Notes: a model not told the origin generated them from the sequence alone. Positions 3,001 through 20,322 are shown, numbered from the stretch's first letter. The stretch: DNA of 64,000 nucleotides from Nanobdellati archaeon (GCA_019429005.1 JAHYJR010000003.1:76026-140025), one strand, 5' to 3'. Made by a program: numbers and translations.

Positions 3001-3396
3001 TGTATAAAATCTCTTATTCTCTTCAACATACAAAACATTAGGATCTTTTACAATACGGTCCAATGCCGAACGCGGAATTTTAGCCGAGACCGCATTCACA
3101 GTCTCATACTTATACTTAACATCACCACCAAAAGATTTAATATCAATCTCAAGAGAATCCGAAACTACAACATCAGCACTCAAAACACCAAAAAATTTTT
3201 TCTTAACAACAGTCCTATCCCTATACGAGATTATAACATCAACAAAGTCATCATCTACACCAGAAAGCGTTTTTTCAATCTTAGAATCAACTGCAAAAGT
3301 CTTGAACTCACCCCCAGACGAAAAAGAGGGAATAATAACTAACAAAAAGATTAAAGAAATTACAAATATCAAAGATTTACGCGTATAATAAGACAT
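1..3396 (-). CDS. Large secreted/surface subtilisin-like S8 peptidase with low-complexity repeat domains and a Cys-rich C-terminal repeat (runs off the window; absent from the ORF track)
   Basis: ATG at 3396; the same frame carries the catalytic motifs VIDTG (~2898), HGTHVTG (~2780) and GTSQATPH (~2240), a signal-like N-terminus, a propeptide, many N-x-S/T sequons and CGDGNVDAGEECDG near position 60. Frame spot-checked as continuous to position 1. Confidence 0.9.
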   Translation of the reverse strand, partial: MSYYTRKSLIFVISLIFLLVIIPSFSSGGEFKTFAVDSKIEKTLSGVDDDFVDVIISYRDRTVVKKKFFGVLSADVVVSDSLEIDIKSFGGDVKYKYETVNAVSAKIPRSALDRIVKDPNVLYVEENKRFYTMLMDSVGVISASDVWDVQSSGVNFTGADETVCVIDTGVNYSHPDLGGGFGGSYKVIGGYDYVNDDGIPMDDNGHGTHVTGIVAANGTVMGVAPGAKIFSMKVLDSSGFGNLIDIIAAIDDCNFNRTVYNISVISMSLGFSSHSSNCDSSYSTLAAAISSAINNNITVVVATGNSGNSTGISSPACISGVIPVGATYKEDYGSKSWTICNDTDSEFDEVACFTDRSVKFPYMLLAPGASINSTYASTPYVLMWGTSQATPHVAGAAALIQQANKQLNGATLTPVQIRSILNDTGKPIYDVGTSTIFSRINVFAAILSLDNDAPIISEISIVPNVTNINPSFNVSVYDALNNISSAEYYVDTNSTIYNMTALDGLFDSKSEELYSVINISNLSDGGHTVYVTVFDAEGNYNVSSVNFTIVFSFNVTILNPTNITYTNNTLLLNYSVMDVYNISTIWYDLNGNITIVNSSVGSNMTNGSIQIVASEGANYLILYANNSLGFISSNPVIFEVDTIGPLLSFVYPTNDNGTYVSENSFYVNLTFIEPNFDMCILNYSNESVVMNLLQNTCYANITELSEGIYNYSVYMNDTFGHFNLSGIRTFTIDTINPSVSYGSNMVLNGSTYSDDWIFVNITASDLNFANLTITLYNSTGFLVSNVYTNNTVSLNYTNLTEGVYHVNAIVYDFAGNSNITYDYFATLDFSDPVISGNLIKNDIIYINDSYDLNIGVIYFTNVTVWGIFYFNGTYILDDIFVKINESLEYLIQYNYSFLNTSSIGNYSVELYVNDSVGTRNNKTFLFEVKNPVSVFVNSDVANNSYLNLEFYNSNTSYFSNVYYSNMTHNSTVVEGIYDVSIHPNNISFVIVENMNLTNDVILNITYKDANISDFSSISNVIFKSEPFVFDFSTNSSWNNTLVCFNVTNISINVQKSRIYKCGWNASLESCIGSSQSELSVLEKNYFTSNFLCSEVTNFSGFVLGELQPYCGDGNVDAGEECDGGASCDSSCK

Positions 3397-3450
3397 TAGT
3401 CTTAAATTATAGATAATCGTTTAAATCTTTAATTGAAATAAAATATAAAA

Positions 3451-3525
3451 CGCCTCTGACGCGATTTGAACGCGCGACCCTTAGCTTAGGAGGCTAATGC
3501 TCTATCCAGACTGAGCTACAGAGGC
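3451..3525 (-). tRNA. tRNA-Arg (CCT), no intron, CCA not encoded
   Basis: Minus strand folds as a cloverleaf: acceptor GCCTCTG/CAGAGGC, D arm TAGCTCAGTCTGGATAGAGC, anticodon arm TTAGC-CTCCTAA-GCTAA, T loop GTTCAAATC. Confidence 0.97.
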
Positions 3526-3617
3526 ATACTCCGCATTCAATTTATATCTATTAAGTTATTTAAAATTAATCAAAAAAGCACAATTAAATTAAAATAGTTA
3601 AGAAATCATCTATAATT

Positions 3618-4262
3618 ATGGAAAAAAACTATAATTCTACAATTATCAAAAGCCTTAAACAAGAATATGAAATCAAAAAAAAAGATATAAAAAAGCGCCT
3701 TGATGATTTCAAAAAAATATCAAAACAAGATAATGATACAATATTCTATGAGCTATGTTTCTGCCTCCTCACACCACAATCAAGTGCAGTATCCTGTGAT
3801 AAAGCAATCCAAAAACTCAAAAAAGATCAATCAATAGAAAGTGAAGAAAAAATCAAAGAAGCACTTCAAGGAATAAGATTCAAAAACAACAAAACAAGAT
3901 ACATTATCGAAGCAAAAGAACAATTTTACAAAAAAGACAACCTAAAACATATTATAAATAACCCAAACAATCAAGAATCTCGTGAAATAATAGTTAAAAA
4001 CATCAAAGGTATAGGATATAAAGAAGCAAGTCATTTTCTTAGAAACACAGGACACGGAAAATCAATTTCAATCCTTGACAGACACATATTAAAGAACCTG
4101 AAAGCAAGTTATGTGATAGATGAAATACCCAAAACAATAACTAAAAAAAGATACATTGAAATTGAAAATAAAATGTTAGAATTTGCTGAATATATATCAA
4201 TACCAATTGAAGAATTAGATCTATTGTTCTGGTCAAAGGAAACAGGAATAATATTCAAATAG
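3618..4262 (+). CDS. ogg: 8-oxoguanine DNA glycosylase / N-glycosylase-DNA lyase (archaeal OGG type)
   Basis: HhH motif GIGYKEASHFLRNTG, ILDRHIL, N-terminal ELCFCLLTPQ. Confidence 0.9.
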   Translation: MEKNYNSTIIKSLKQEYEIKKKDIKKRLDDFKKISKQDNDTIFYELCFCLLTPQSSAVSCDKAIQKLKKDQSIESEEKIKEALQGIRFKNNKTRYIIEAKEQFYKKDNLKHIINNPNNQESREIIVKNIKGIGYKEASHFLRNTGHGKSISILDRHILKNLKASYVIDEIPKTITKKRYIEIENKMLEFAEYISIPIEELDLLFWSKETGIIFK

Positions 4263-4893
4263 ATTTTGAAAATTCACAAAAATAATTATCGTGAGACCTT
4301 TTACTCAACCCACAAACAAGACCTGATTCAGAGATAACCCTATCAAGTTCCCCTTCTTTAAAAAGATGATAAAACCGTTCATAAACATTATTCCACATGA
4401 CATTAACATCTTGTGATTTTTCATCCTTAAAACGCTCCTGTTCATACACCCATGCACTTACAAGACCACATCCATCAGATTTTAAAACAGTCTTTATTTC
4501 TAACAAAGAATCAAGTCGTGCCTTATCACTTACCATATGATGAACTGCAGCAATAAAAAGCACATTATCAAATACATCAGACTTAAACGGAAGATTTAAT
4601 GCATCACAACAAATTAAATTAATTGTCACATTTTCGCACTTAGCTTTCTCTTTTACAAGCTTTAAAAGAGCTAAAGAAATATCAACACCAACAACATAAA
4701 GCCCTTTTTTTGCAGCATAAATAGAATTTCGGCCGTTACCACACGCAACATCTATTAATAACCCTTTATCCAAAACATTTATAAAATCAGAACAATCTTT
4801 CCATATATAACCACGTGTAGCATCAAAATGCTCTGCGATAATATCATAAGTATCTTTAATATTATCACGTAATTGATTTTTAGATTGAACCAT
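4255..4893 (-). CDS. Class I SAM-dependent methyltransferase, Trm9/ALKBH8-like
   Basis: Motif I IDVACGNG, HFDATR N-terminal motif, IAAVHH post-motif, CDALNLPF. Confidence 0.8.
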   Translation of the reverse strand: MVQSKNQLRDNIKDTYDIIAEHFDATRGYIWKDCSDFINVLDKGLLIDVACGNGRNSIYAAKKGLYVVGVDISLALLKLVKEKAKCENVTINLICCDALNLPFKSDVFDNVLFIAAVHHMVSDKARLDSLLEIKTVLKSDGCGLVSAWVYEQERFKDEKSQDVNVMWNNVYERFYHLFKEGELDRVISESGLVCGLSKRSHDNYFCEFSKSI

Positions 4894-5031
4894 AATACAG
4901 TTTTATACTAAATATCTTATTAAATCTACTCAAAAAACAAAAACCTTTTAAAGCTTTTAGACATATAATTTTACTAACAGATAAGAAACATAATCTTATT
5001 CTATTAATTTTACACAATCAAGGGATTATAA

Positions 5032-5562
5032 ATGACACGATGTGAAATCTGCGGTAGTGCTGCAAAAATTAGAAAAGTAAATCTTGAAGGCGGGACTATA
5101 GAAGCATGCTTTTACTGCGTACCACGTACAAAAGTTGAAAGCCGAACTAAATTCGTTAAACGAAAACAGTTTGAAAATACAATAAACCGACCAAGAAAGG
5201 CATTGATAGATAACTATGCATCTTTAATCAAGAGTGAAAGAGAGAAAAATAATCTCACTCAAAAAGAATTTGCTCATAAAGTCGAAGAACATGAATCAAT
5301 TATTGTAAAAATTGAACAAGGTACATTCAGACCAAATTTTGCAGTTGCTAGAAAAATTGAACAATTATTCAAAATAACTCTTGTTAAACAGCTTGAAGTC
5401 AAAAAAGAGTTCGTTAAAAGCAATTACAAAAAAGATAATTACAAACCTAAAAATAAACTGGACAATATAATACATACTGAAAACAAAAAAAGACCAGCAC
5501 ATAGTATAGGTTGTACAATTGCAGATTATATTAAGATAAACAAAAAACAATCTAAATCTTAA
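5032..5562 (+). CDS. Archaeal multiprotein bridging factor aMBF1 (Zn ribbon + Cro-type HTH)
   Basis: CEICG...CFYC zinc ribbon; LTQKEFAHKVEEHESIIVKIEQG HTH. Confidence 0.88.
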   Translation: MTRCEICGSAAKIRKVNLEGGTIEACFYCVPRTKVESRTKFVKRKQFENTINRPRKALIDNYASLIKSEREKNNLTQKEFAHKVEEHESIIVKIEQGTFRPNFAVARKIEQLFKITLVKQLEVKKEFVKSNYKKDNYKPKNKLDNIIHTENKKRPAHSIGCTIADYIKINKKQSKS

Positions 5563-6010
5563 TTTTATCTATTATAATATGCGATAAATAGCCCACAAAA
5601 CCAAATAAACCAGGGCTTATATTTCTATTTAATATAAAAGCTATAGCAGATAATACAATCAAAAAAATAATGCTAGATGTAAACGTATGTGTAATACCTC
5701 TATGTTTTGGTTTTAAAAACAAAATTATTTTATCTGCTGACAAAAACCATACAAATAACATAAACAGCATAAGAGGGACATCATTTACAAGTGATACGAT
5801 AATATAAATTGAAAATAATATTATTATTAAATCCCTTAACGTTTTAAACGCTTTTGAATTCTTATGATCTATATCCGGAAACAAACTTCCAATAAAAAGA
5901 CATAATGCTGATAAGAAAAGAATCCCTTTATTTGCTATTGGAAAAATCGCATATAAAGCAATAAAAAACAAAAATCCAAACAATAGATGTGTCTTATAAT
6001 TAGGCATCAA
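5552..6010 (-). CDS. Membrane-bound metal-dependent hydrolase (YdjM/LexA-binding family)
   Basis: THLLFG, LFPDIDH, HRGITHT, SHIIID motifs with hydrophobic segments. Confidence 0.85.
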   Translation of the reverse strand: MMPNYKTHLLFGFLFFIALYAIFPIANKGILFLSALCLFIGSLFPDIDHKNSKAFKTLRDLIIILFSIYIIVSLVNDVPLMLFMLFVWFLSADKIILFLKPKHRGITHTFTSSIIFLIVLSAIAFILNRNISPGLFGFVGYLSHIIIDKIKI

Positions 6011-6013
6011 AAA

Positions 6014-6205
6014 TCAACTGAAATATCCTGTAGCATGATTCTCTTTTCCACATTTTGGACAAACATAATCAAAAGTATATTTAATCTGACTTATCATTGA
6101 ACCATCAACAACAAATATTTTTTCCATCTTTGGATTATCTAATCTAAATGTATTTCCGCATTTACATTTAATATACATCTGATTTTCAACACTCATAATA
6201 ATCAA
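6014..6205 (-). CDS. Small putative zinc-binding protein
   Basis: CKCG...CPKCG pair in 63 aa. Confidence 0.6.
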   Translation of the reverse strand: MIIMSVENQMYIKCKCGNTFRLDNPKMEKIFVVDGSMISQIKYTFDYVCPKCGKENHATGYFS

Positions 6206-6242
6206 TTAGTTTTTATTATATATATATATAGTATAGAAGAAA

Positions 6243-6257
6243 GCGGGCATAACCCGC
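6243..6257. terminator. GC-rich hairpin GCGGG-CATAA-CCCGC
   Basis: Perfect 5-bp GC stem flanked by A-runs (T-runs on minus) downstream of the small minus-strand ORFs. Confidence 0.35.
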
Positions 6258-6279
6258 AAAAAAATATGAAAAAATGACT

Positions 6280-6387
6280 TTAATAAAGCCATTTCATTGC
6301 TCTTGAACCAGTATAAACTTTATTTTTTTTATGCTGTTTCAAAAGCTGTGTCCACATTAAAGTTGGTTCTTCTGTATTTATCACCAT
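6280..6387 (-). CDS. 35-aa microprotein MVINTEEPTLMW... (not in ORF track)
   Basis: GAGGTG RBS 6 nt upstream of ATG 6387, overlapping the stop of the preceding ORF. Confidence 0.35.
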   Translation of the reverse strand: MVINTEEPTLMWTQLLKQHKKNKVYTGSRAMKWLY

Positions 6388-6392
6388 ACATA

Positions 6393-6775
6393 TCACCTCG
6401 AGATTAATTGTGTTATATATTCCTGTGCATATTGCTCTTTTCGATAAGTTCCAAATGCGTAAGGAAATAATTTTTCAAGCTCATCAATACGCAACCGTAC
6501 TTTAGTTTTAATATTATGCCATTTTTTCTGATCATCCATATTCATATCCCTAAATTCTTGTAACAAAATGCCTTTTGTAGAAAATCCTTCATTTCTTAAT
6601 TCATTTTTAATCATAGCCAATTCAATAGATGTTCTCATACTTAAAACCCCCATTTTTGTTTCATATGCATCTCATATCTTTTCTTTTTAAAATAAGGTAC
6701 AGAGCTCCATGCGGACTCAAACCCGATTCCATATTTGGAATTCATCAATATCATCTGATCATCACTTAATTGCAT
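6393..6775 (-). pseudogene. Hypothetical gene apparently split into 6641-6775 (44 aa) and 6393-6653 (86 aa)
   Basis: GAGGGG RBS before ATG 6775; two overlapping ORFs in different frames with a TGA just before DAYETKMGVLS. No family recognised. Confidence 0.35.
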
Positions 6776-7047
6776 ATATATCCCCTCTTAAACGAAAAAA
6801 GGTGTATTGGTTCTTTTTATGGTATAAATCCCAAAGACCAAAAGCACCTGTTATCATACCACCTGGATTGGTAGGTAAAATTAGATTAACATTCTGGATA
6901 TATACCCCTTCTGGATACAAATACTACCGGTTGGGCCGGTTAAGAATTAATTACAAAATCAAAAAAAAATCACCAGATAACACATTTTCAGATTTAAACG
7001 GTTATTAATCAAATTTAAAGATAAAAATAAAATTATCTAATCACAAT

Positions 7048-7815
7048 ATGTCAAGATATTTAAACATTAATTCTAAAAAATACATTATGACTGCAGAAAA
7101 CATAATCTTTTACAGTATACTTGCTGCTGTGATTACAATAGGTTCGGCAGGAATATTCCTAAAATATAAAAAATGGACACAAAATAATCTTATATTTCTT
7201 ATTTCGTTTGCTTCCGGTTTTCTCCTTTCTGCCGCATTCATACATCTTATTCCTGAAGCAATTGAACTTTCAGGAAATAACGCAATGCTTTTACTTTTAA
7301 TTGGTTTTTCACTCATATATGTTCTTGAAAAAACAATCATAATACATTCCTGTGCTGAAGCAAGTGAAGAACACTGTGAAGTACATAGCATGAGTAAAGG
7401 TGCAATAATTGGATTATCTATCCATTCCATATTTGATGGTATTGCAATCGGTGCTGGCTTTGAAATTAGCCAAACTATAGGACTTATTGCTGCAATAGGT
7501 GTTATCATACATAAACTTCCAGAAGGCCTATCAATTATGAGCATCATGCTTGCCGCAAAATATGATGATAAGAAAGCGATGACAAATGTAATAGGAATTG
7601 CACTTTGCACACCACTAGGTGCTATTCTCGCATATTTATTCTTACAAAATGTATCTCAAATATTTATAGGTTACGCACTTGCATTTTCAGCTGGAACATT
7701 CATCTATATCGCGGCATCAGACCTAATCCCACAAACCCATGAATACAAAAGTATCAATACACTTTTGATGTTTGGATTAGGAATTATTGTTTTATGGGCA
7801 ATTGTTGGGATTTAA
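7048..7815 (+). CDS. ZIP family divalent metal (zinc) transporter
   Basis: SFASGFLL, HLIPEA, His-rich loop HSCAEASEEHCEVH, HSIFDG, HKLPEG. Confidence 0.92.
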   Translation: MSRYLNINSKKYIMTAENIIFYSILAAVITIGSAGIFLKYKKWTQNNLIFLISFASGFLLSAAFIHLIPEAIELSGNNAMLLLLIGFSLIYVLEKTIIIHSCAEASEEHCEVHSMSKGAIIGLSIHSIFDGIAIGAGFEISQTIGLIAAIGVIIHKLPEGLSIMSIMLAAKYDDKKAMTNVIGIALCTPLGAILAYLFLQNVSQIFIGYALAFSAGTFIYIAASDLIPQTHEYKSINTLLMFGLGIIVLWAIVGI

Positions 7816-7916
7816 GATAATTAAATCTAAAAATACAAACCTAAAAAACAAAATTTAATAATTCTTTAAAACATATACCCAAACAGACTTATAAAGAACC
7901 GTATAAATACAATACT

Positions 7917-9089
7917 ATGTTTGATTTCATATTACCAAATTATCATGATGGAAGTATTATCAATTTGATGAGCTCAATCTCAAATAATTTTGAACAGAAA
8001 CATGAATACAAAGAACTACCTTCACTGACATCTGAAGAATTAAAGAGATCTCATAATGTCATATTGCTTGTGATTGATGGTCTTGGTTATGAATTTCTTA
8101 AAAAACAAAAAGAATCATACCTATTCGAAAATCTTAGAACTAATATTACTTCAACATTCATATCAACAACAGCTTGTGCCAACACAGCATTTAATGTAGG
8201 TTATCCGCCGCAACAACACGGATTAACTGGTTGGGATATCAACTTAAAAGAGGTTGGTTCAATAACAACAATTTTGCCTTTTGTACCTTTATTTGGTAAA
8301 GAGTCTTTAGATAAATCCAATTTTAAAATGGAAGATATCATAGATATGCCGTCATTTCATAAGAATTTTAATGCTAAATGTTTTGCATTAATCAATAAAA
8401 AACTAGCATCAAGCCAATTTACAAAAAATACATATAAAGACATGAAAATAATTCCAACAGCATCATACACAGATACATTTACAAAATTAAAAAAAATAAT
8501 TAATACAAAATCAAACAAACGAAAATTTGTTCATGCATACATAAACGATTTTGATTCTTATTCACATAATTACGGAATAAATAGCAGAACTGTTAAAGAA
8601 CTATTTTTAGATTTAGATAAAAAAATCAAAACATTTTCAAAACAAATTAAAGACACAAATACAAAACTAATTATTGTTGCCGACCATGGATTAATAGATG
8701 TCGAGATAGATAAACAAATTTGGGTTGAAAACATAGAAGGTTTAAGTGAATGTTTAACAATACCTCTTACAGGCGAATCCCGTCTTAGATATTGTTTTGT
8801 ACGCCCACATAAAGTAAAAGATTTTGAAAGGATTATGAAAACAAAACTTTCTAAATATTGTTGGTGTTACAAGGGCGAAGAATTAATTAAACAAAATTTA
8901 TATGGACTTGGAAAACCAAATAAAAAAATATTTGACCGTGTTGGAGATTATGTTTTAATCATGAAAGATAATTATCTCTTAAACGATAAATTAGCCAACT
9001 TCGAAAAACCAAAAAGATCTCTGAAATCACACCACGGTGGAGTCAGTCCCGACGAAATGCTTGTACCTTTAATTGTTTTAGATTGTTAA
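7917..9089 (+). CDS. Alkaline phosphatase superfamily (nucleotide pyrophosphatase/phosphodiesterase type)
   Basis: LLVIDGLG, STTAC nucleophile region, DSYSH, ADHG, HHGG metal ligands. Confidence 0.85.
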   Translation: MFDFILPNYHDGSIINLMSSISNNFEQKHEYKELPSLTSEELKRSHNVILLVIDGLGYEFLKKQKESYLFENLRTNITSTFISTTACANTAFNVGYPPQQHGLTGWDINLKEVGSITTILPFVPLFGKESLDKSNFKMEDIIDMPSFHKNFNAKCFALINKKLASSQFTKNTYKDMKIIPTASYTDTFTKLKKIINTKSNKRKFVHAYINDFDSYSHNYGINSRTVKELFLDLDKKIKTFSKQIKDTNTKLIIVADHGLIDVEIDKQIWVENIEGLSECLTIPLTGESRLRYCFVRPHKVKDFERIMKTKLSKYCWCYKGEELIKQNLYGLGKPNKKIFDRVGDYVLIMKDNYLLNDKLANFEKPKRSLKSHHGGVSPDEMLVPLIVLDC

Positions 9090-9221
9090 TATTTTATATT
9101 TTTGAGATTAATAACTATTCAAAAATTAAATAAATACATAATATTAAATAAAAACAAAATATTCTTGAAAATTAAATCATATACCAAATATTTAATAAAT
9201 CCCATACACAAATTTAAAAAT

Positions 9222-9392
9222 ATGGATAATTTGAAACCAGGACAAATTATCGATATGAACGGCGAAGAAAACAGCTCTCTTTTTTATAAATTATTAAAAG
9301 ATGTTATTAATCAGACTAATTTTGATGAGATACAGACAAAAGTAAATAATTATCTTAAAAAATATGAAGATGATTCAACACCAAATTCTTGA
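9222..9392 (+). CDS. Small hypothetical protein (likely start ATG 9222)
   Basis: The upstream part of track ORF 9102 is AT-rich non-coding-like; MDNLKPGQIID... reads as protein-like. Confidence 0.4.
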   Translation: MDNLKPGQIIDMNGEENSSLFYKLLKDVINQTNFDEIQTKVNNYLKKYEDDSTPNS

Positions 9393-9532
9393 GGTTCTAA
9401 ATTATAAAGAATAAATATTTAATTCAAACAATATCTCATTTTAGATTCACTTTTCCTTAAATAAATAGAACTCAGATAAACCAAACAATTTATAAAGAAA
9501 TATAGATATAATGAATATTCCACAAAAAATAA

Positions 9533-10075
9533 GTGATATCAATGGTAAAAATAAAAGGACATGAAATTAATCCGGTACTTACTAAAGTAGCATTTAATCG
9601 TAAAGCTTTACAATTCAAGAATGATCTAATTTCAATCTTAAAAGAAATTGGTGTTGATGAGTACGACATAAAAATACCTCTAGAAGCAATCGCAATAAAA
9701 AATGTAAAAGCATCTGCAACTTGGTATGTTGATAACCATAGAATGCATTATAGTTATAATTTACAAAATAAATTTGTAGATAACCTATATGTTGTATTGA
9801 AAGTTATACAACTTGAAACAAAACAGGTTCTTTCTAAAGAAAAAACAATTAACGAATTTGTTTCAGCATTCAAAGAAGACAAAGATGTTGATAAAAAACG
9901 AATCGAAGCAAGGAAACATCTAGGCCTCGAACATGATGAAACTGATTTTAACGTAATAAATAAAAAATACAAAGACATGGCAAGAGTATTACATCCAGAT
10001 ATGCCAACAGGAGATATCGAAAAATTCAAAGATTTAAATGAAGCACATAAAACTCTGAAACGTGAATTAAGTTAA
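9533..10075 (+). CDS. Protein with C-terminal DnaJ (J) domain
   Basis: ARKHLGL...KYKDMARVLHPD...FKDLNEAHKTL with the HPD motif. Confidence 0.85.
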   Translation: MISMVKIKGHEINPVLTKVAFNRKALQFKNDLISILKEIGVDEYDIKIPLEAIAIKNVKASATWYVDNHRMHYSYNLQNKFVDNLYVVLKVIQLETKQVLSKEKTINEFVSAFKEDKDVDKKRIEARKHLGLEHDETDFNVINKKYKDMARVLHPDMPTGDIEKFKDLNEAHKTLKRELS

Positions 10076-10294
10076 AAACGTCTTTTCATTAATAGAATAT
10101 AACAACCAATAATGAAAAGTCTTAATTTTTGGAATACATAAAACATAATTTTTGAAAGTATCCAAAATGGTATACAACCAAAGAGAATATCTTATAAATT
10201 AAATATAACTTTTTTTGAAAAAATATAAAACATATGATACAAATAGTATCGGAAGTGATTCTTAGGGAACAACAAAAAAATAAAAGAAAATAAA

Positions 10295-10657
10295 ATGAAT
10301 GCAATTTATACAGCGTCAGATATAAATCTAAAAGATATAAAAGAACTTTTTAATTATAATATAATATCTTTTAAAAGAACAACAATCATATATAAAATAG
10401 TCGAAAACAGCTACCTATTTATCTATAAATTAGGTTCTGTTATATTTTACAATGTAGATAAAAACACACAAGAGATGATAATTAAAAAAATTAAATCAAA
10501 AATAGATACAAAAAATATTATTGATACATATTTCTATGAGACCTATAACCTATATGAAGATAAATCCTTAAAATCAAATCATATAATAGAATTCAATAGC
10601 ACAAATCTTAAGAACATAAACTTTGAAAATATCAATATATTAAGCATGATTCTTGCA
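10295..10657 (+). pseudogene. 5' fragment of an RMD1/YagE (DUF155)-like gene, truncated at the mosaic junction
   Basis: YLFIYKLGSVIFYNV, ETY and INILSMILA resemble the RMD1 family; similarity stops abruptly at 10657, after which the frame is antisense rpl14. Confidence 0.6.
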
Positions 10658-10956
10658 ATTTTATCAACAGCAAGGAATCTTTCAACAACTTCTTTAGCAA
10701 CAATACCTTTGATTTCTTTACCCCTTGGTTCAAGTGTATCTTGTAATAATATAGCTGTATTTTCTGCAAATTTTATCCTGATTCCATTAGATCTTCTATA
10801 TTCTGCTCTTTGAGTAACTATAACAGCTTTAACAATTTCATATGCAATTTTTTGGTTTCCTTTTTTTACAGCACAGACTACAACATCACCAACACCTGCT
10901 TTAGGTTGTCTTCCACGTACACCTCTATAACCTCTAACAGATATGATTTCTAGCAT
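10648..10956 (-). pseudogene. rpl14: Fragment of ribosomal protein uL14 lacking its N-terminus
   Basis: IISVRGYRG...AGVGDVVVCAVKKG...AVIVTQRAEYRR..G.RIKF..N...P.GKEIKG.VAKEVVER, the archaeal L14 signature, outside any ribosomal protein operon. Confidence 0.85.
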
Positions 10957-11646
10957 TCCATCAGGAAATTTTGGAGATATGATGGGGACAATATTAACAA
11001 AAGAAATGGGATTACCTATTAAAAAAATCATTTGTGGCGTGAATGAGAATACAGAATTTCCACATTTCATAAACACGGAAAAATATGTTGTTTCACAGTC
11101 AAAAAATACACCTTCATCTGCAATGGATGTTTCACACCCAAGTAATTTGGCAAGATTAATTGAATTTTATGGTGGCTATATGTTTGATGAGAAAGATCCA
11201 CAAACAAATAATATTATAAAACAAGAAATAATTGATAAAATGCCAAATTTAGAAACAATGAAAAAAGATATATATTCAATTGGAATTACAAATCCTAAAC
11301 ATTATGAAACCATGAAAAAAGTATTTTATAAATACAACATAATCCTAGATTCTCATGGTGCTGTCGGATGGGACGCTCTTGAATATTACTTAGAAAATAA
11401 ACATAACCAACTTTCAATAATTTATGAGACACAAAACCCTGAAAATTTCCAAACGCTGTTAAAAAAGCAATTGGAATCACACCAGAAATCCCTAATAGGA
11501 TGAAAGAACAAACAAAATCAAATGAAATATTTAATTCAATCCATAGCAGTCCATATAAGACTGAACAGGGTTTAAAATTAAGTAATTCTCAAATAACTAA
11601 AGCTAAATCAAAGATTAAAGATTTGTTTATAACAGTAATTATTTGA
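10952..11646 (+). pseudogene. thrC: 3' half of threonine synthase, with a frameshift near 11437
   Basis: IPSGNFGD, EMGLPIKKII, SSAMDVSHPSN, DSHGAVG, YET...P(E)KFP; the C-terminus continues in another frame to TGA 11646. The N-terminal PLP-lysine region is absent. Confidence 0.8.
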
Positions 11647-11868
11647 GAAACAACTGATTTAATCTTTCCAGAATATATTAAAAGAATTCGTTAATTTTTA
11701 TCAACAATTGCAACAGTTATTGGTTTTATAGAACCCTAAGCAATTAATTGTCTCATTATTTTTTTATTTGGATAAATCATAATAATAATTAACTTCAATC
11801 ATTAAAATAGTCTAAGTTTATAACCCAATTATCAAAAAAATATATACTTTAAACGTTAATATAAAATT

Positions 11869-12318
11869 ATGAAGATTAATTTTATTTATTCACAAGTCTA
11901 TTTTAGAAGTCTCAATCAACACAAGTCTGTAAAAAGAACATGGGATGAAGTCAAAAAAATAGGTACACAATTTGAAATAAAATATAAAACTGAAATAAAT
12001 AAAATTATTGATATAATCCCAAAAGTCACAAAGAAACCTTGGAGAAAAGAAAATACAGACATATATATTATCGATTGGGTCGGTCCTAGTTTTTCTCACC
12101 CCCTCACATTAAAAGTTAGAAATGACTTACTCCTTATGCTTGTAATATTAACTCATGAACTGTTACATGACTTTTACTTAAATGAAAAAGACATAGAACA
12201 CATCGAGGAAACAATCAACAAAAATGTTGAAAATGTATTTAAAGAATTAAATATTGATGTTAAAGAACAACTACATATTCTACAAAGTTTTCACGAGAAA
12301 CGATTTGGAAAAAAATGA
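11869..12318 (+). CDS. Hypothetical protein with HExxH zincin-like motif
   Basis: LTHELLH motif in a 149-aa ORF. Confidence 0.6.
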   Translation: MKINFIYSQVYFRSLNQHKSVKRTWDEVKKIGTQFEIKYKTEINKIIDIIPKVTKKPWRKENTDIYIIDWVGPSFSHPLTLKVRNDLLLMLVILTHELLHDFYLNEKDIEHIEETINKNVENVFKELNIDVKEQLHILQSFHEKRFGKK

Positions 12319-12403
12319 AAAAAATAACTGATCTGATTCATAAACAACCAAATCAAACCAGATTCAAAATAAAAAATCTCTAACTATTCTCAGTCTTCCC
12401 AAC

Positions 12404-13837
12404 CTATTTGATTTCCTTTTCCTTACCTGAAAAAAACGTAATTGCCTCAGCAAGTTCAGGATGTTTTTTTGAATATTTAACAAGTTCAATACCCTTAAGA
12501 TACGCATCACATGCTTGAACTAACGCACGAGCTCCAGCCTTTGTACCACTCGGATGTGCATGACACCCAGCACCCATGGTAGTTATAAAATCTACACCGC
12601 CAATTGCATCAATAAATGGTTTTAATAGTACGGGATTAAGACCGCCTGATACAATAGGACAACATTTTTTCAAACCTCTCCAACTATCATCAGATAATAT
12701 AACATGGTGTGCAACATCTTCATGAACAAGTCTCAAAACATCTTCATCATTTTCAGGAACGTTTGCCCAGGACTGACTAAAGAAATGCCCTTGTGCTGAT
12801 AGATTCAATATATTATGTGCTGCAGTAATATCCTCTTTTTTATCACCCTTCATCTTTCCGATACCAGCCGTACCTGTATGAATTCCTGATGCACCAGCCA
12901 AACGCGCAAACTTAGACAAGACTAAAACTGAAAAACCGAATGGGCTTTCAGGCCGTGTAAATGCACCATGGGCAGCTCTATGGAAATGCAAAAACACACC
13001 AGGATACCGTCTCCTTAAAGTCTGCACAGCCATCCAACCTGCAGTAATACCATCAATCAAAAAAGCATAACTTCCAGATTCAAAACCAGCATTACGAATC
13101 AATTCACAACGCTCAATCATTGTATCAAAATCGGATGCAGATACATTAAAAGAATGCACTTTTTTCCGCCCAGTCTCTTTTACAGCCTTATCCATAGCTT
13201 CCTTAACATGCCGGACCATCTTATCATAAGGACAAAAATCTTGATTTGCTTGAGGTTCATCATTTTTTACAAAATCGCCACCACCAACCCAGAAATCATA
13301 GCAGACTTCTGCATATTCGGCTGATGTAAGCCCCATCTTAGGTTTTACAATAGTCCCTAATATTGGTCTATCATATACATCAAGATATTTTCGCATATCA
13401 TCAATAGTATAACTAGGACCATCATATTGTTCAAGCATAGCTGGAGGGAACCAAAGGTCAAGTAACTTAAGAGCATCAACCTGTTTCATTCCAAGAACAT
13501 TACCAACAACATATGTCAATATGTTCTGAATATTACCCATACGATCAAAAAGTCTCCATGGATATGCAATCCACACAAGATTTTGTTTCAAGTCAACCTT
13601 ATAGACAAGTGCATTCATCTCCCTTGAAAAAGGAGTTTCAGTAGTAACTTTAAAATTGGTTCCAGTTGATGACTCTGCCGCGATTTCAGCAGCAGCTTGA
13701 AGCGTATTTAAACCATCACCAGGAATAAAATGAAAAACACATAAAAGATATTCTCCATTACGTGGATTAGATAAATCCAGATTAACATAAGCCGCTTGTT
13801 TTGAGTTCAATGATTTCAAATATTTCTTCAATGTCAT
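12404..13837 (-). CDS. rbcL: RuBisCO form II/III (Methanococcoides-type) with assembly-domain insert
   Basis: AAESSTGT, GTIVKPK, GGDFVKNDE, HFHRAAHG, HTGTAGIGKMKG, PIVSGG, TTMGAG; ~27-aa insert NVPENDEDVLRLVHEDVAHHVILSDD. Likely start ATG 13837 after a GGTG RBS. Confidence 0.95.
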   Translation of the reverse strand: MTLKKYLKSLNSKQAAYVNLDLSNPRNGEYLLCVFHFIPGDGLNTLQAAAEIAAESSTGTNFKVTTETPFSREMNALVYKVDLKQNLVWIAYPWRLFDRMGNIQNILTYVVGNVLGMKQVDALKLLDLWFPPAMLEQYDGPSYTIDDMRKYLDVYDRPILGTIVKPKMGLTSAEYAEVCYDFWVGGGDFVKNDEPQANQDFCPYDKMVRHVKEAMDKAVKETGRKKVHSFNVSASDFDTMIERCELIRNAGFESGSYAFLIDGITAGWMAVQTLRRRYPGVFLHFHRAAHGAFTRPESPFGFSVLVLSKFARLAGASGIHTGTAGIGKMKGDKKEDITAAHNILNLSAQGHFFSQSWANVPENDEDVLRLVHEDVAHHVILSDDSWRGLKKCCPIVSGGLNPVLLKPFIDAIGGVDFITTMGAGCHAHPSGTKAGARALVQACDAYLKGIELVKYSKKHPELAEAITFFSGKEKEIK

Positions 13838-13865
13838 TTTAAAGCACCATTTCAAGTTTTAAAAA

Positions 13866-13884
13866 TATCATAATAATATTATGA
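13866..13884. promoter_or_regulatory. Inverted repeat ATCATAAT-AAT-ATTATGAT upstream of rbcL
   Basis: 8-bp perfect arms about 30-50 bp upstream of the start; AT-rich, so it may be chance. Confidence 0.3.
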
Positions 13885-14453
13885 TTTATACAAATAAATG
13901 TTATTAACAATAACACAAATTAAACATAATACATAATATTCAATTAATTTAGACAGATATAAATATATTCATACTAGCTTATCAAAAAGATATACAAACA
14001 TAAATTGCTTTTAAAAAACACAATAAAATGTAAAAATTAAATTAAAATTTAAATAGATTTTAAACTAAATAATTACTCTAAATATATTTAAAACTAAGAT
14101 TATATATATGAAAACTAAATTAACTCAATTAATAACGATTTTAATAATAACACTTTTTGCCTACATTTAGATAAAAAATCAGAACCTAACGATTCTAGAT
14201 TATAATCAACCCGACCATCCATCATATGTCATTCTTCTAAAAACTTTTCATCTTCCATTTCTTCTAAAATACGTTTAAATTTTTTCCAAAGAAACGTCAT
14301 CATCTTAGGCATAATCTTTAAGTTTATTTACAGTTAAAAAATTCCTAATCGATAAAAAGGTATGTCCTATATGAACACCAGAATAAGTCTTTTGTGTCAA
14401 TAAATATAAAATTCCACATTTAATACAAAGTTTATCCATAATATTATACTAAA

Positions 14454-14570
14454 TATTCCTTTTTATTAAACTATTTATAACAAAATAAACAGTATTCCTT
14501 TTTATTAAACTATTTATAACAAAATAAACAGTATTCCTTTTTATTAAACTATTTATAACAAAATAAACAG
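14454..14570 (+). repeat. Perfect 39-bp tandem repeat x3
   Basis: TATTCCTTTTTATTAAACTATTTATAACAAAATAAACAG at 14454, 14493 and 14532. Confidence 0.95.
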
Positions 14571-14650
14571 AATTTATAAAAAATAATTAATTCTAACAAC
14601 CCATCTAAAAAGAAAAATTTATAAATATCAAAATATCAATACATATTGAT

Positions 14651-14908
14651 ATGAATAAAGACTTAGCCTTAAAAATATTCAAAACGTTGGGCGAAAAAAC
14701 ACGATTTAAAATAATTGAAACCTTACTAGATAAAGAACTTTGCGCTTGCGAAATCCCAAAAATTATAAACAGAACACAAAGCAATACATCTATGCACCTT
14801 ACAAAACTGCAAGATCTAGATATGATTAAATCAAGACGTGATGGCAAAAAAAGATTATATTCAATAAAAAATGAAAATATCAAAAAAATTATGAAGATGA
14901 TTAAATGA
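14651..14908 (+). CDS. arsR: ArsR/SmtB family transcriptional regulator
   Basis: FKTLGEKTRFKII...ELCACEI...SQSNTSMHLTKL, RRDGK wing. Confidence 0.9.
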   Translation: MNKDLALKIFKTLGEKTRFKIIETLLDKELCACEIPKIINRTQSNTSMHLTKLQDLDMIKSRRDGKKRLYSIKNENIKKIMKMIK

Positions 14909-15138
14909 AAATTGAAATACTTGGAACCGGTTGTAATAATTGCTTAAAACTTGAAGAAAACGCAAAAAAAGCATTAAAAGACATAAATAAAAAAGATGTA
15001 GAACTCATAAAAATTACAGATATAACAGAAATACTAAGGTACGGTATAATGTCAACCCCTGCAATAATTATTGATGGCGAAATCAAAGCATATGGCAGAA
15101 TCCCTGATATTGACGAGATTAAAACATGGGTAAAATAA
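14905..15138 (+). CDS. Small thioredoxin-like redox protein (MTH895 family)
   Basis: MKIEILGTGCNNC, YGIMSTPAIIIDG; ATGA overlap with arsR. Confidence 0.92.
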   Translation: MKIEILGTGCNNCLKLEENAKKALKDINKKDVELIKITDITEILRYGIMSTPAIIIDGEIKAYGRIPDIDEIKTWVK

Positions 15139-15139
15139 A

Positions 15140-16093
15140 ATGATTGATTTATTCTATCCATTTCAATGGGTTGCAAACAATATTACAAATAGACTTAATC
15201 TTGAAGGACACATCGCAGATAGTGTAAACTTCATAATCTATGACGTAATAAAAATATTTTTTTTACTTATTGTGATGATATTCGCAATTTCATACATTAG
15301 AAGCTATATCACACCTGAAAAAACAAGAACAGTTATAGGCAATAAAAAAGGTCTTCGCTATCATTTTCTAGCATCAATAACAGGTGTCTTCACACCATTT
15401 TGTTCATGTTCATCAGTACCATTATTTATTGGTTTTATTGAAGCTGGCGTTCCTTTAGGCGTAACATTCTCATTTTTAATAACAAGCCCGCTTGTTAATG
15501 AAGCCGCAATTGCGATTCTTTGGGCAACATTCGGACTTAAATTAACAATAATATATGTGATATCTGGAATATTAATCGGTGTTATCTCGGGTTACATAAT
15601 TGGACTTTTAAAAATGGAAAAATATGTTGCAAGTTTTGTCTATGACATTAAAATGATGAAAATTAAAGAAGAAAAAAAGACACAAAAAGATAGAATCAAA
15701 TATGCTAAAAAAGAAGTCAGAAATATTGTATCAAAAGTATGGCTATACATCATAATAGGTGTCACATTAGGTGGCTTATTCCACAGTTTTGCTCCAGAAG
15801 GTATACTTGAAAAATATGCAGGAAACAGTATCATTGGAGTACCCATCGCAACATTAATAGGTATACCATTATATTCAAATGCAATCGCAATGATACCAAT
15901 CATTGAGAGCCTTGTTGGGAAAGGATTACCACTTGGAACTGCCTTAGCATTCCTTATGGCTGTAACCGCATTATCATTACCAGAAATAATTATATTAAAA
16001 AAAGTCCTTAAAAAAGAATTAATTGCTGTTTTTGTAGGAATAACAGGATTTGCGATAATGATTACGGGGTACTTGTTTAATTTTATCGTTTGA
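15140..16093 (+). CDS. Permease, ArsP/DUF318 family
   Basis: TPFCSCSSVP, FLITSPLVNE, GIPLYSN, ALSLPE motifs. Confidence 0.9.
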   Translation: MIDLFYPFQWVANNITNRLNLEGHIADSVNFIIYDVIKIFFLLIVMIFAISYIRSYITPEKTRTVIGNKKGLRYHFLASITGVFTPFCSCSSVPLFIGFIEAGVPLGVTFSFLITSPLVNEAAIAILWATFGLKLTIIYVISGILIGVISGYIIGLLKMEKYVASFVYDIKMMKIKEEKKTQKDRIKYAKKEVRNIVSKVWLYIIIGVTLGGLFHSFAPEGILEKYAGNSIIGVPIATLIGIPLYSNAIAMIPIIESLVGKGLPLGTALAFLMAVTALSLPEIIILKKVLKKELIAVFVGITGFAIMITGYLFNFIV

Positions 16094-16183
16094 TAAAATA
16101 ATTATAAAAATTATATCAAATTTTACAGAAACTGTTATAAAGTTATCTTTACTAAGTAATAACATATAAACTAGGTGTTAATT

Positions 16184-17659
16184 ATGATTAAAGAAATCAA
16201 AATAAATAATAATAATAAATCGTTAATGGGTACCCCCAAAGAAATGAGACTCATTCTTCAAAAAATTGGATATGATAATGTTATTGTTTATGGATACGCT
16301 GGTACGCTTATTGCAGATAGTATCGATGACGAAACTAATGAAAAAATGAAAGATTTTAACAGAAAAAAATTACTATCTAACGTAACATACCATGAAACAC
16401 CGATAGGTACAATATATAACACAGAGGGTAGTCTAAATAAACATGCAATTGCAGATGACCTTAAAATAGCAGTACTTGATAAAGAAATAGAATCTCAAGA
16501 ACTTGTTGCCACAATAAAAACAGTTGCAGATCAAGTTTCAAAATATATTGGTGATGAATTATTAACAGGAACTGGTACTTTATCAGCAATAAGTGCCTAT
16601 TTTAGCAGCACCCTTACAGACGAAGATATTAATAAATATCCAGAATATTTTAATGAAAAAAATGGACAGATAACACTTTCTGAAGAAGGAAACAACATGC
16701 TAAATATACTTAAAGACAGTTGGGATTATCTTCCACGAAATCTACGTTCTGCATGTAAAATGAATATAAAACCATATCTTTTAGAAGTATTTAAAGATGT
16801 ATCTGAAAATATACCCGTACAACTGGATAAATTCCAAGATTATATTCAAAAAGAATTAACATCAGAAACAATCAAGAAAAAAATCGACCAAGATTCTAAA
16901 TTATTACGAAAATTAATTGATGATGGATATTATTGTGATTATTTTATTAATACAGATTATGATGAATTAATAAAAATCATAGAAATGGATCAAAATAATT
17001 TAATCAACAATGAGACTTTTAAGAAAATAAAAAAATCAATACCTGTAAGACATCTAGACTCACAAAAATACCAACGACATCAAAAGGATAAAAAATATTA
17101 TGAACTAGAACAAGAACATAAATTATATAACGAATGGGGAAAAAAAATAAAAGATACAATAATGTCAATTGAAACAAACCAAAAAATAATCGAAGGACAT
17201 GGTATAGACCCATTAAAACAACTAAAAATGCTTGAAGATACAGGATATATTTTTTTAAGAGAAGATGATAAAAAAATAAATATATACAAAGGACAAAACT
17301 TTAATCTGCTTAATGAGGATAACACATCTTTCTGTCCAATAGGTCTTTCAGATAAATGGGATTCATGGAAAATTGAAAGACAGGGAAATATAACAATTTT
17401 AACAAAATATTTTAAAAATGTAAATGATAAATTAATAAGAATCTCAGTTAATTCATTAGGAAAATATAGCGTTGAAGGTAATGATCTAACTGTTTTTGAT
17501 GAAAATGTTAAAAAGGAATTAAATCTTGTTGAAGAAGTTATAAATTATAATCTTCCTAAAAACAAACGCAAAACTTTAGATTGGACAGAATATAATGAAT
17601 CACAACCAAAAACAAATACAATAAAACCTGTTAAACAAATCAAAAAACAATTATTTTAA
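16184..17659 (+). CDS. Large hypothetical protein (likely start ATG 16184)
   Basis: Open 490-aa frame with AGGTG RBS 6 nt upstream; no motif recognised. Confidence 0.75.
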   Translation: MIKEIKINNNNKSLMGTPKEMRLILQKIGYDNVIVYGYAGTLIADSIDDETNEKMKDFNRKKLLSNVTYHETPIGTIYNTEGSLNKHAIADDLKIAVLDKEIESQELVATIKTVADQVSKYIGDELLTGTGTLSAISAYFSSTLTDEDINKYPEYFNEKNGQITLSEEGNNMLNILKDSWDYLPRNLRSACKMNIKPYLLEVFKDVSENIPVQLDKFQDYIQKELTSETIKKKIDQDSKLLRKLIDDGYYCDYFINTDYDELIKIIEMDQNNLINNETFKKIKKSIPVRHLDSQKYQRHQKDKKYYELEQEHKLYNEWGKKIKDTIMSIETNQKIIEGHGIDPLKQLKMLEDTGYIFLREDDKKINIYKGQNFNLLNEDNTSFCPIGLSDKWDSWKIERQGNITILTKYFKNVNDKLIRISVNSLGKYSVEGNDLTVFDENVKKELNLVEEVINYNLPKNKRKTLDWTEYNESQPKTNTIKPVKQIKKQLF

Positions 17660-17696
17660 TAATAAACGACCAATACAAATATTATAAGGTAAGATT

Positions 17697-17996
17697 ATAG
17701 ATATTAAAGAAGCTCAAGACACAGTTTATGAACACTTAGTAAAGATATGTTATACAAAAAGCGAGACAACACCAACACATTCATTTTTGCATCTTGTTGA
17801 AGAAGTGGGTGAAGTCTCAAGAACATTGTTATACAAAGAAACAGAACGTGTTAACTTCAAAAATAACACAGATCCAGGTAAACTTGAAGATGAGATTGCT
17901 GACATATTCTGGCAGACACTCAAACTAGCGTAATATCTAAAAATAGATCTTGACCAAGCATTCATCAATAAGCTAGAAAAAAATAGGAATAAATAA
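17697..17996 (+). pseudogene. MazG-like nucleotide pyrophosphohydrolase, ATA at the start position and an in-frame TAA at 17931
   Basis: HLVEEVGEVSR...LEDEIADIFWQTLKLA*YLKIDLDQAFINKLEKN: the EExxE/ExxD MazG motifs. Confidence 0.85.
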
Positions 17997-18080
17997 AACT
18001 CAAAAACAGATAAACAAATATCTAATAATTTATCAAAAAAATAAACCCAATATTAAATATATAACATAACAAATATTATC

Positions 18081-18731
18081 ATGGAACAACAAAAAATTAT
18101 CAATAAAACTATTGATTTTGTAAAAGAAACATTACAAGATACAGAAAGTGGCCACGACTGGTGGCATACATATCGTGTCTGGAAACTATCTAAACACATT
18201 GCAAAAACAGAAAATGCAGATAATTTTATTGTTGAATTAGGCGCACTATTACATGATATAGCAGATTCAAAATTTCATGATAAAAACGAAAATATTGGAC
18301 CCAAAAAAGCAGAAGAATTTCTAAAAACCTTAAACTTAGACAGTAATATTATAGAACAGATCAAGAATATTATAAGTAACATATCTTTCAGAACACGGAA
18401 TGAGACAACATTCAAATCAGTAGAACTTGACATTATACAAGATGCAGACCGCTTAGATGCACTTGGAGCTATCGGTATTGCAAGAGCCTTCAATTTCGGT
18501 GGCCATAAAAACAACACAATATATAATCCCTATATAAAACCAAATACTAACATGACAAAAGAAGAATACAAAATGCGAGATAAACCGACAATAAATCATT
18601 TCTATGAGAAACTCTTATTATTAAAAGATCTTATGAACACAAAAGGCGGACAAAAAATTGCAGAACAAAGACACGCATTTATGGAACAATACCTTACCGA
18701 ATTCTATAATGAATGGGAAGGTAAATCATAA
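18081..18731 (+). CDS. HD-domain phosphohydrolase (YedJ-like)
   Basis: GHDWWHTYRV, LLHDIAD, QDADRLDALGAIG. Confidence 0.92.
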   Translation: MEQQKIINKTIDFVKETLQDTESGHDWWHTYRVWKLSKHIAKTENADNFIVELGALLHDIADSKFHDKNENIGPKKAEEFLKTLNLDSNIIEQIKNIISNISFRTRNETTFKSVELDIIQDADRLDALGAIGIARAFNFGGHKNNTIYNPYIKPNTNMTKEEYKMRDKPTINHFYEKLLLLKDLMNTKGGQKIAEQRHAFMEQYLTEFYNEWEGKS

Positions 18732-18782
18732 AGATATTAAAAAAACATAAAGCTTTTAAAGAGAATCCTATTAAATAAAATC

Positions 18783-19322
18783 ATGAAAATCTTAGTTGAC
18801 ATGGATGGAGTTATTGCAGATTTCGAAAAAGGATTCCTGACCAATTTCACAGAAAAATACCCTGAAGAACAATTCATACCACTTAATAAAAGAACAGAGT
18901 TCAAACCACGAGATCAATACACAATAAAACAAAAACCTCTTGTTGAAAGCATATACAACGCACCTGGTTTTTATACGTCCTTACCGCCTATTGATGGTGG
19001 ACTTGACGCATTAAAAGAAATTTCAGATAAAGGCCATAATGTATTTATTTGTACATCGCCACTTTCAAACTATCAAAATTGTGTTTCTGAAAAATATCAA
19101 TGGGTAGATAATAACCTTGGTATAGATTGGACTAAAAAAATTATTATTATAAAAGATAAGACATTAATTTCAGCAGACCTACTTATCGACGATAAACCCG
19201 AAATAACAGGTTTAGAAACGCCATCATGGGAACATATAATATATGACCAACCATATAATCAAAATGTTAATTATAAAAGACGGATTAATTGGGCGAATTA
19301 TAAAACTATTTTAGACCTTTAA
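18783..19322 (+). CDS. 5'(3')-deoxyribonucleotidase (NT5C-type HAD)
   Basis: DMDGVIAD, ICTSP, EKYQWV, KDKT, LLIDDKP. Confidence 0.92.
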   Translation: MKILVDMDGVIADFEKGFLTNFTEKYPEEQFIPLNKRTEFKPRDQYTIKQKPLVESIYNAPGFYTSLPPIDGGLDALKEISDKGHNVFICTSPLSNYQNCVSEKYQWVDNNLGIDWTKKIIIIKDKTLISADLLIDDKPEITGLETPSWEHIIYDQPYNQNVNYKRRINWANYKTILDL

Positions 19323-19456
19323 AAACGTACTCTTGTAACACACTAACCTATAAACCAAAATTACTTTTTTCTTAAAAACACAACTAAATCAACATAAAAT
19401 CACTAATTTTATTATAATATATAATATATTTAAAATTTACTCGACATCATAACATT

Positions 19457-20322
19457 ATGAATCCAGATATAATCATATCTAATCCAAAAAAACTTGAAAT
19501 TCTTAAAAATAAAATAGCTTTAGATGGAATAAAAAACATACATATTATCTCTGATTTTGACAGAACCTTTACAAAAGCATTTGTTAATAGACAAAAAGTA
19601 CCGTCTATGATTTCAGAATTACCTAATGGAAATTACTTAACAGACGATTATGCAAAAAAAGCTCATGCACTTTTCAATAAATACCATCCTATTGAAATAG
19701 ATATAAACATAACCGAAGAAAACAAAAAAAAGCTATGCATACTTGGTGGACTGAACATTTCAACCTTCTTATTGAATCTAAACTAAACAAAAAAGATCTT
19801 GATAAAGTAATAACCTCCGAAAATATCTGTCTTAGAGATGGCTCATATGAATTCATAAAAACCTTACATACAAATAATATACCGCTTATCATCATGTCTT
19901 CAAACGGTCTTGGTGGCGATACAATTTCAATGTTTCTTGAAAAAGAAAAAAGATTATATAATAATATTCACATAATATCAAACACATACATATGGGATAA
20001 AGATGGATTTGCTATTGATATAAAAAAAACAATAATACATGTTGCAAACAAAGATGAAACCTCAATAAAAGATTATCCTGTTTTTAATAAAATAAAAGCA
20101 AGAAAAAATGTTATCCTTATTGAAGATTCCCTAACAGATGTTGATATGGTTAAAGGCTTTGATTATGACAATATTATAAAAATAGGATTTATAAATGACA
20201 ATATAGAAAAACATCTTGATTCGTACAAAAAAACTTTTGATGTTGTAATACTAAATGATTCAGATATGAGTTATATAAATCAATTATTAGATTATATAAT
20301 AAACAACAAAAAAGTCAAATAA
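19457..20322 (+). pseudogene. Pyrimidine 5'-nucleotidase (cN-III/UMPH-1-like HAD), split by a -1 frameshift at A8 (19724-19731)
   Basis: SDFDRTFT motif I in the first ORF; SSNGLG, NVILIEDSLTDVDM and KIGFIND in the second; one extra A gives ...NKKKAMHTWW. Confidence 0.85.

Follow-up and report, generated by a model that had tools for sequence, protein, structure and literature searches.

A probable repair scar in a reduced Nanobdellati genome: remnants of a DUF155 gene and of thrC joined by an inverted copy of rpl14

Introduction

How do pieces of three unrelated genes come to abut, with no spacer between them, in the genome of a small archaeon? The question is raised by a locus in a 64,000-nt stretch of DNA from a Nanobdellati archaeon (GCA_019429005.1 JAHYJR010000003.1:76026-140025), hereafter the window, whose first letter is position 1 of all coordinates given here. 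The contig that carries the locus (C8) belongs to a genome of 1.08 Mb in 15 contigs, with 30% G+C and an estimated completeness of 93.5%. In an initial annotation, made from the sequence alone, positions 10295-11646 had been read as the 5′ part of an RMD1-like gene, an inverted fragment of rpl14 and the 3′ part of thrC, and either microhomology-mediated end joining of chromosome fragments or an assembly chimera had been offered as the cause. Profile and homology searches have now identified all three pieces. The features discussed below are as follows.

9533-10075, + strand: small DnaJ-domain protein gene, left flank (Pfam DnaJ, E = 7e-8; tblastn/blastn)
10079-12427, no strand: lineage-specific 2.35-kb island, which sister-genus genomes lack between the two flanking genes
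10295-10657, + strand: 5′ remnant of a DUF155/RMND1 (RMD1)-family gene, comprising codons 1-121 of about 263, its start codon and the region upstream both preserved
10295-10813, + strand: chimeric 172-aa open reading frame, in which 121 aa of DUF155 are followed by an rpl14-antisense tail of 51 aa
10579-11076, − strand: chimeric 165-aa open reading frame with a thrC-antisense leader, truncated uL14 and a DUF155-antisense tail
10646-10657, no strand: junction 1 overlap ATGATTCTTGCA, 12 nt, identical in native rpl14
10646-10957, − strand: internal fragment of rpl14 (the patch), 312 bp, inverted relative to the flanking remnants, uL14 positions 27-130 of 131
10943-10957, no strand: junction 2 overlap ATGATTTCTAGCATT, 15 nt, with an 8-nt perfect core at 10950-10957
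10943-11441, + strand: thrC 3′ remnant, first frame, approximately residues 256-425 of a threonine synthase of about 487 aa
11441-11442, + strand: 1-nt deletion that shifts the frame of the thrC remnant (cct-ga-aaa-ttt-cca; P-[GA]-K-F-P in homologues)
11443-11646, + strand: thrC 3′ remnant, second frame, up to the natural stop codon, matching the tails of homologues
11869-12318, + strand: intact conserved hypothetical gene of 149 aa in the island, with a THELLHD motif (HExxH-like)
12404-13855, − strand: RuBisCO large-subunit gene, right flank, 89-90% identical in the sister genus

Results

The two outer remnants

The left piece retains its start codon with 220 bp of upstream sequence. Its match to Pfam PF02582 is faint (E = 9e-4, 19.8 bits against a cut-off of 27, positions 1-81 of about 174), a word-based homology search gave nothing, and an exhaustive HMMER search was needed, in which phmmer matched 31 proteins among 1.8 billion representatives. 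The full-length homologues so obtained have 259-284 aa and score 98-112 bits across the full domain, residues 1-121 of the query aligning to their residues ~6-123, and the five that were scanned are clear DUF155 proteins with E values of 1e-28 to 1e-32. The two best homologues sit on contigs of just 1.1-1.5 kb. The C-terminal half of the gene was found nowhere in the genome (93.5% complete), the bin contains no intact DUF155 gene, and none was found in 40 relatives of the same order.

The right piece comprises the last ~232 codons of thrC (10943-11646), corresponding to positions 187-329 of 340 in TIGR00260, and scores 63.6 bits, where the cut-off is 167. With the C-terminal ~230 residues of threonine synthases of about 480 aa, at 80 loci from DPANN and other metagenome-assembled genomes (MAGs), it shares 55-67% identity, and it keeps the PSGNFGDMMG motif that is invariant among them; its best relatives, like those of the 149-aa gene in the same island, are in Nanoarchaeota and Woesearchaeota MAGs, which, like the archaeal type of uL14, accords with a DPANN host. 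In the homologues the tail follows the main match in the same frame, whereas here it is split by the 1-nt deletion at 11441/2, a feature additional to those described in the initial annotation. This is the one indel over 700 bp, and no stop codon occurs. The N-terminal ~255 residues, the PLP-binding half with the SFKD motif seen in 4/4 full-length homologues, are missing from the whole genome, and neither an intact thrC in the bin nor a thrB in the genome was found. Among nine other genomes of the same family none has thrC, which is present in two other families. A conserved pair of DUF155 and thrC was found at none of the 80 thrC loci.

The thrC subfamily concerned (loci L060-L139) carries an insert of ~12 residues in the FDEKDPQTNNIIKQEI region. 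At 50-67% identity it extends over Nanoarchaeota, Woesearchaeota and Iainarchaeum as well as MAGs of Syntrophorhabdaceae, Desulfobacterota and Spirochaetota, a spread that suggests inter-domain transfer or mis-binning.

The inverted patch and its native donor

The middle piece matches the archaeal uL14 model TIGR03673 (Pfam family PF00238) with E = 1e-33 and 115.9 bits, below the cut-off of 191.45. As had been noticed from the sequence, it lies outside the ribosomal operon and lacks the N terminus, and what is left of uL14 is placed between two unrelated remnants. The native copies were sought, as the initial annotation had proposed: in contrast to thrC and DUF155, rpl14 is intact, as a single full copy on another contig (C13) within the operon L29-SUI1-Rpp29-S17-L14-L24-S4e. 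Homology between patch and native gene spans exactly 10646-10957, with 97.8% identity (7/312 bases differ). A weak gapped similarity to rpl14 left of 10646, reported by BLAST, was taken as chance in AT-rich DNA.

Read in the L14 frame, the differences are three synonymous and four non-synonymous changes (H65Y, V67I, P121L and G124D). At H65Y, P121L and G124D, 15 relatives agree with the native residue; G124 is otherwise invariant in 16 sequences, and neither L121 nor Y65 was ever seen in the relatives. Wherever a strong base stands against a weak one (6/6 differences), the native gene has G/C and the patch A/T. The seventh difference, a T at 10951, is unlike native rpl14 and also unlike the thrC sequence deduced from homologues. 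Patch-specific variants occur 6-16 nt from both junctions. On this substitution pattern, we regard the patch as a resident non-functional copy in neutral decay under the AT-biased pressure of a 30% G+C genome. In a whole-genome self-comparison it was the sole interspersed duplicate above 95% identity, the others being tandem or contig-end repeats.

Repeats at contig ends form a separate observation: the start of C1 and the end of C4, the start of C5 and the end of C6, and the ends of C3 and C5 share tandem-repeat units of 96-137 bp at 99-100% identity. Contigs with matching repeat ends probably abut, the assembly having broken at tandem repeats.

Overlaps at both junctions

Each junction falls in a short stretch that reads as part of both adjoining genes. 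The initial annotation had located these stretches correctly and made them slightly too short: junction 1, given as 10648-10657, extends over 10646-10657, and junction 2, given as 10952-10957, extends over 10943-10957, the 8-nt core being the part that is perfect. On the + strand junction 1 reads M-I-L-A, in accordance with the DUF155 consensus x-[IV]-[LI]-A before QS, and on the − strand A-R-I-I of uL14; among DUF155 homologues the A of x-[IV]-[LI]-A-Q-S is nearly invariant. A further match, of STA in the antisense tail to DUF155 after A121, was dismissed because its S is a patch-specific substitution.

Junction 2 reads M-I-S-S-I on the + strand, where the thrC consensus is M-I-A-S-[IV], and M-L-E-I-I of uL14 on the − strand. 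The 80 thrC homologues have E-P-M-I-A-S-[IV]-P-S-G-N-F-G-D-M-M-G at this place and the window has D-M-I-S-S-I-P-S-G-N-F-G-D-M-M-G. Close homologues code M-I-A-S-I as ATGATTGCAAGCATT, which we take for the ancestral thrC sequence, and the native rpl14 antisense strand, ATGATTTCAAGCATT, agrees with it at 14/15 positions; the lengths of both overlaps thus rest on the protein consensus together with homologues of 30-67% identity, not on ancestral recipient DNA.

Codon windows that mimic the consensus of the partner gene make up 0.33% of all windows for the DUF155 pattern and 0.15% for the thrC pattern (six frames, whole genome), and among antisense rpl14 windows 3/376 and 1/376 fit the respective patterns. 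Since such mimicry is rare in the genome, the breakpoints fall where rpl14 happens to resemble both recipient genes, and by these counts the overlaps exceed chance. The two overlaps are also alike, ATGATTCTTGCA (10646-10657) and ATGATTTCTAGCA (10943-10955) both beginning with ATGATT; that this hexamer is common to DUF155, thrC and both patch ends is probably chance in AT-rich DNA.

An island between two conserved neighbours

The flanks are those of an ordinary locus. On the left, the DnaJ-like gene has ~71-73% amino acid identity to the sister genus (73% in genome G002), where it adjoins the RuBisCO gene that forms the right flank here, presumably of form III. In G002 the two genes are convergent and adjacent with a 60-bp spacer, and in a second sister-genus genome, G008, they are ~0.95 kb apart. 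Because the two genes adjoin in these genomes, the contig is not made up of unrelated regions. When the window was compared by blastn with three sister-genus loci (L055, L056, L057), DNA homology ended at 10078 and restarted at 12428, which places the mosaic inside a lineage-specific island of 2.35 kb.

Besides the mosaic, the island holds the intact 149-aa gene, whose product has ~30 homologues of 48-70% identity in Woesearchaeota, Paceibacterota and other small-genome MAGs and no match in Pfam or NCBIfam. In one Woesearchaeota contig (L140) the homologue lies 1.2 kb away from a RuBisCO gene. The island is without a nearby tRNA, the sole tRNA of positions 1-20000 being at 3450-3526, and terminal inverted or direct repeats above AT-rich chance matches were not found; a mobile-element origin was rejected for these reasons.

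Some observations concern the flanking genes themselves. The DnaJ-like protein (9533-10075) has 180 aa with a C-terminal J-domain and no other domain. The RuBisCO large subunit shares 89-90% identity with those of four sister-genus genomes, while uL14 is 63-67% identical to that genus, and RuBisCO matches elsewhere in the family reach just 38-40%; either unusual constraint or a recent exchange inside the family would account for these values. In another sister-genus genome, G004 (contig C65, locus L056), a direct duplicate of ~290 bp of the 3′ end of its own RuBisCO gene (10539-10817 vs 11691-11980) lies ~870 bp downstream of the full gene, at 87% DNA identity and with a 92-aa open frame, and a 262-aa membrane-protein gene separates the two. 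It is a second gene-fragment scar at the RuBisCO-downstream spot.

Discussion

A deletion probably bridged by copying

From sequence comparison we regard as established what the three pieces are, which native gene was the donor, how the patch has decayed, that the junctions overlap and that the flanks are syntenic. Taken together they make it likely, in our judgement, that the mosaic is a repair scar in a reduced DPANN genome, in which an internal deletion was bridged by a microhomology-primed copy of rpl14. To arrive at this model we infer a single event, an ancestral gene order and the enzymology. The ancestral island between the DnaJ-like and RuBisCO genes would have held DUF155, threonine synthase and the 149-aa gene, all on the + strand; that DUF155 and thrC adjoined before the event is assumed, and they are not neighbours at any of the 80 thrC loci. 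A break, or a stalled or collapsed fork, would have deleted the 3′ half of DUF155, the 5′ half of thrC and the sequence between, a loss of at least 1.2 kb, to which DUF155 contributes ~430 bp and thrC ~765 bp. On the DUF155 side, the 3′ end may then have paired with the 12-nt rpl14 match ATGATTCTTGCA and been extended by ~300 nt along the rpl14 antisense strand, after which the released end would have paired with the thrC side through the 14/15-nt match ATGATT-CAAGCATT. Such a course would amount to microhomology-primed synthesis-dependent repair or template switching. The scar would look no different had a free rpl14 fragment been annealed at its two ends through microhomology, an equivalent route. 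Afterwards all three pieces would have drifted neutrally, the patch by 7 substitutions, mostly from G/C to A/T, and thrC by the loss of 1 nt.

Microhomology-mediated joining, as the initial annotation had it, is thus supported and can be made more precise. The dual-coding overlaps, the decaying patch and the syntenic flanks speak for it; as to the substrate, an internal deletion with a copied patch fits better than free chromosome fragments that were joined. At their outer sides the remnants have natural gene ends, namely the DUF155 start with its upstream region and the thrC stop, which favours an internal deletion over the capture of random fragments. The patch divergence of 2.2% matches the state of thrC, with a single indel and without stops, and a single, fairly recent event is therefore plausible. 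Classical NHEJ is considered unlikely because no Ku was found in the genome, and the capture of a cDNA of the rpl14 message is likewise considered unlikely, no reverse transcriptase having been found there.

Other explanations

The mosaic might be real and yet have arisen in several steps, or a single break downstream of RuBisCO might have taken up three unrelated fragments: a foreign DUF155 piece, a piece of the genome's own rpl14 and a thrC piece. None of 40 relatives in the order has DUF155 and the family lacks thrC, so both could have been imported, and the spot downstream of RuBisCO is variable, with a 0.95-kb insert in G008 and an extra gene plus the 290-bp RuBisCO 3′ duplicate in G004. 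Against this, natural gene boundaries at both outer ends would be rare for random fragments, and the concordant decay of thrC and patch is consistent with one recent event. We consider a multi-step origin unlikely.

It is quite improbable, in our estimate, that the mosaic is an assembly or library artefact, whether reads of three loci or of a co-occurring strain were joined or an amplification chimera was formed. The genome is a 15-contig assembly of the metagenome type, inverted joins with microhomology are typical of multiple displacement amplification (MDA) chimeras, and we found no independent assembly that contains either junction or the patch-specific variants: the three junction-spanning open reading frames have no exact record in public assemblies, and exact DNA across junctions 1 and 2 or with the variants was found in no metagenome or genome collection, where the window's own records are possibly masked. 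The patch itself argues the other way. Had resident DNA been joined into a chimera, the patch would equal native rpl14, and the identity that the initial annotation had taken to favour an artefact is absent, some of the 7 differing sites lying within 16 nt of the junctions; the patch is thus unlikely to be an amplification or assembly chimera of the resident gene. Nor is it likely to be a co-assembled functional allele, to judge from its decay, for the functional allele of another strain would not have G124D, P121L and H65Y at conserved columns. Moreover, an artefact would take two chimeric joins within 312 bp, and overlaps of 12-15 nt are below the k-mers that assemblers usually employ. The two flanking genes do adjoin in the sister genus, the thrC remnant has a frameshift of its own, the bin offers no intact thrC or DUF155 to mis-join, and the genome has no other duplicates of this kind. 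The scar is therefore probably not an assembly error, as far as these comparisons go.

There remains the reading that the mosaic is functional. Both chimeric open reading frames of the initial annotation, 172 aa (+) and 165 aa (−), are present, and a transcript of ~200-300 nt from the DUF155 promoter, being a near-perfect complement of the rpl14 message, might act as an antisense regulator of L14 synthesis in trans or yield a new protein in which DUF155 is fused to a hydrophobic tail. In favour of this, the DUF155 start codon and the region before it are undamaged, read-through meets no stop for 51 codons, and the patch shows 97.8% complementarity to the native rpl14 message along its 312 nt. 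Yet the antisense frame of the 51-aa tail is also present in native rpl14, open to the same stop, so that the open tail was inherited and not selected. Oligo-T runs terminate archaeal transcription, and the T6/T7 runs at 10853-10873 probably stop it within the patch. Given also the neutral pattern, with 4 non-synonymous to 3 synonymous changes and strong/weak changes toward A/T, and an arrangement found in no relative, we give a regulatory RNA or a fusion protein hardly any credence and see in the chimeric frames, on their sequence, by-products with no sign of function.

Relation to known events

Templated or filler insertions are known from synthesis-dependent microhomology-mediated end joining (MMEJ) and from MMBIR/FoSTeS template switching, in eukaryotes and E. 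coli. The bridged deletion favoured here has in common with them a deletion junction that holds a stretch copied from the same genome, in either orientation, with microhomology on both sides. It differs from typical cases in that the donor is on another contig, the patch has 312 bp, the microhomologies have 8-15 nt and the host is a DPANN archaeon without Ku. A literature search found no natural example of a templated insertion in a Ku-less DPANN archaeon, the archaeal query giving eukaryotic and CRISPR papers.

In Haloferax volcanii, Ku-independent MMEJ uses microhomologies of >2 and <50 nt, and deletions are described, the word ‘insertion’ occurring 0 times in the main text (PMC12281630). 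For the replicative primase PriSL of Saccharolobus islandicus, microhomology annealing and primer extension are reported, with small insertions or deletions as outcome (PMC12019639). By analogy, the event proposed here would resemble these systems in its independence of Ku, its short microhomologies and the order of annealing and polymerase extension; unlike what those studies describe, an ectopic template of 312 bp appears to have been copied.

The scar can also be set beside the pseudogenes of symbionts with reduced genomes, to which the truncated and frameshifted thrC, in a pathway otherwise lost (no thrB), is similar. In contrast to ordinary pseudogene remnants, an identifiable donor marks the truncation point and the mode of inactivation is readable. 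With chimeras of MDA or assembly it shares the inverted microhomology join in a metagenome-type assembly, and it is set apart from them by a diverged patch with neutral, AT-biased changes, by two junctions in 312 bp and by syntenic flanks. It belongs to known kinds of events, filler or templated insertion and gene decay in reduced genomes, and reveals no new gene, system or function.

If the junctions are real, the locus is a clean natural record of gene loss in a reduced archaeal genome, in which donor, microhomologies and drift can all be read. The 7 differences between the patch and its parent gene are at the same time a small sample of the neutral mutation spectrum, strongly directed from G/C to A/T. 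Should the proposed origin be true, it would mean that DPANN archaea lacking Ku mend breaks by copying an ectopic template, with microhomology as the primer.
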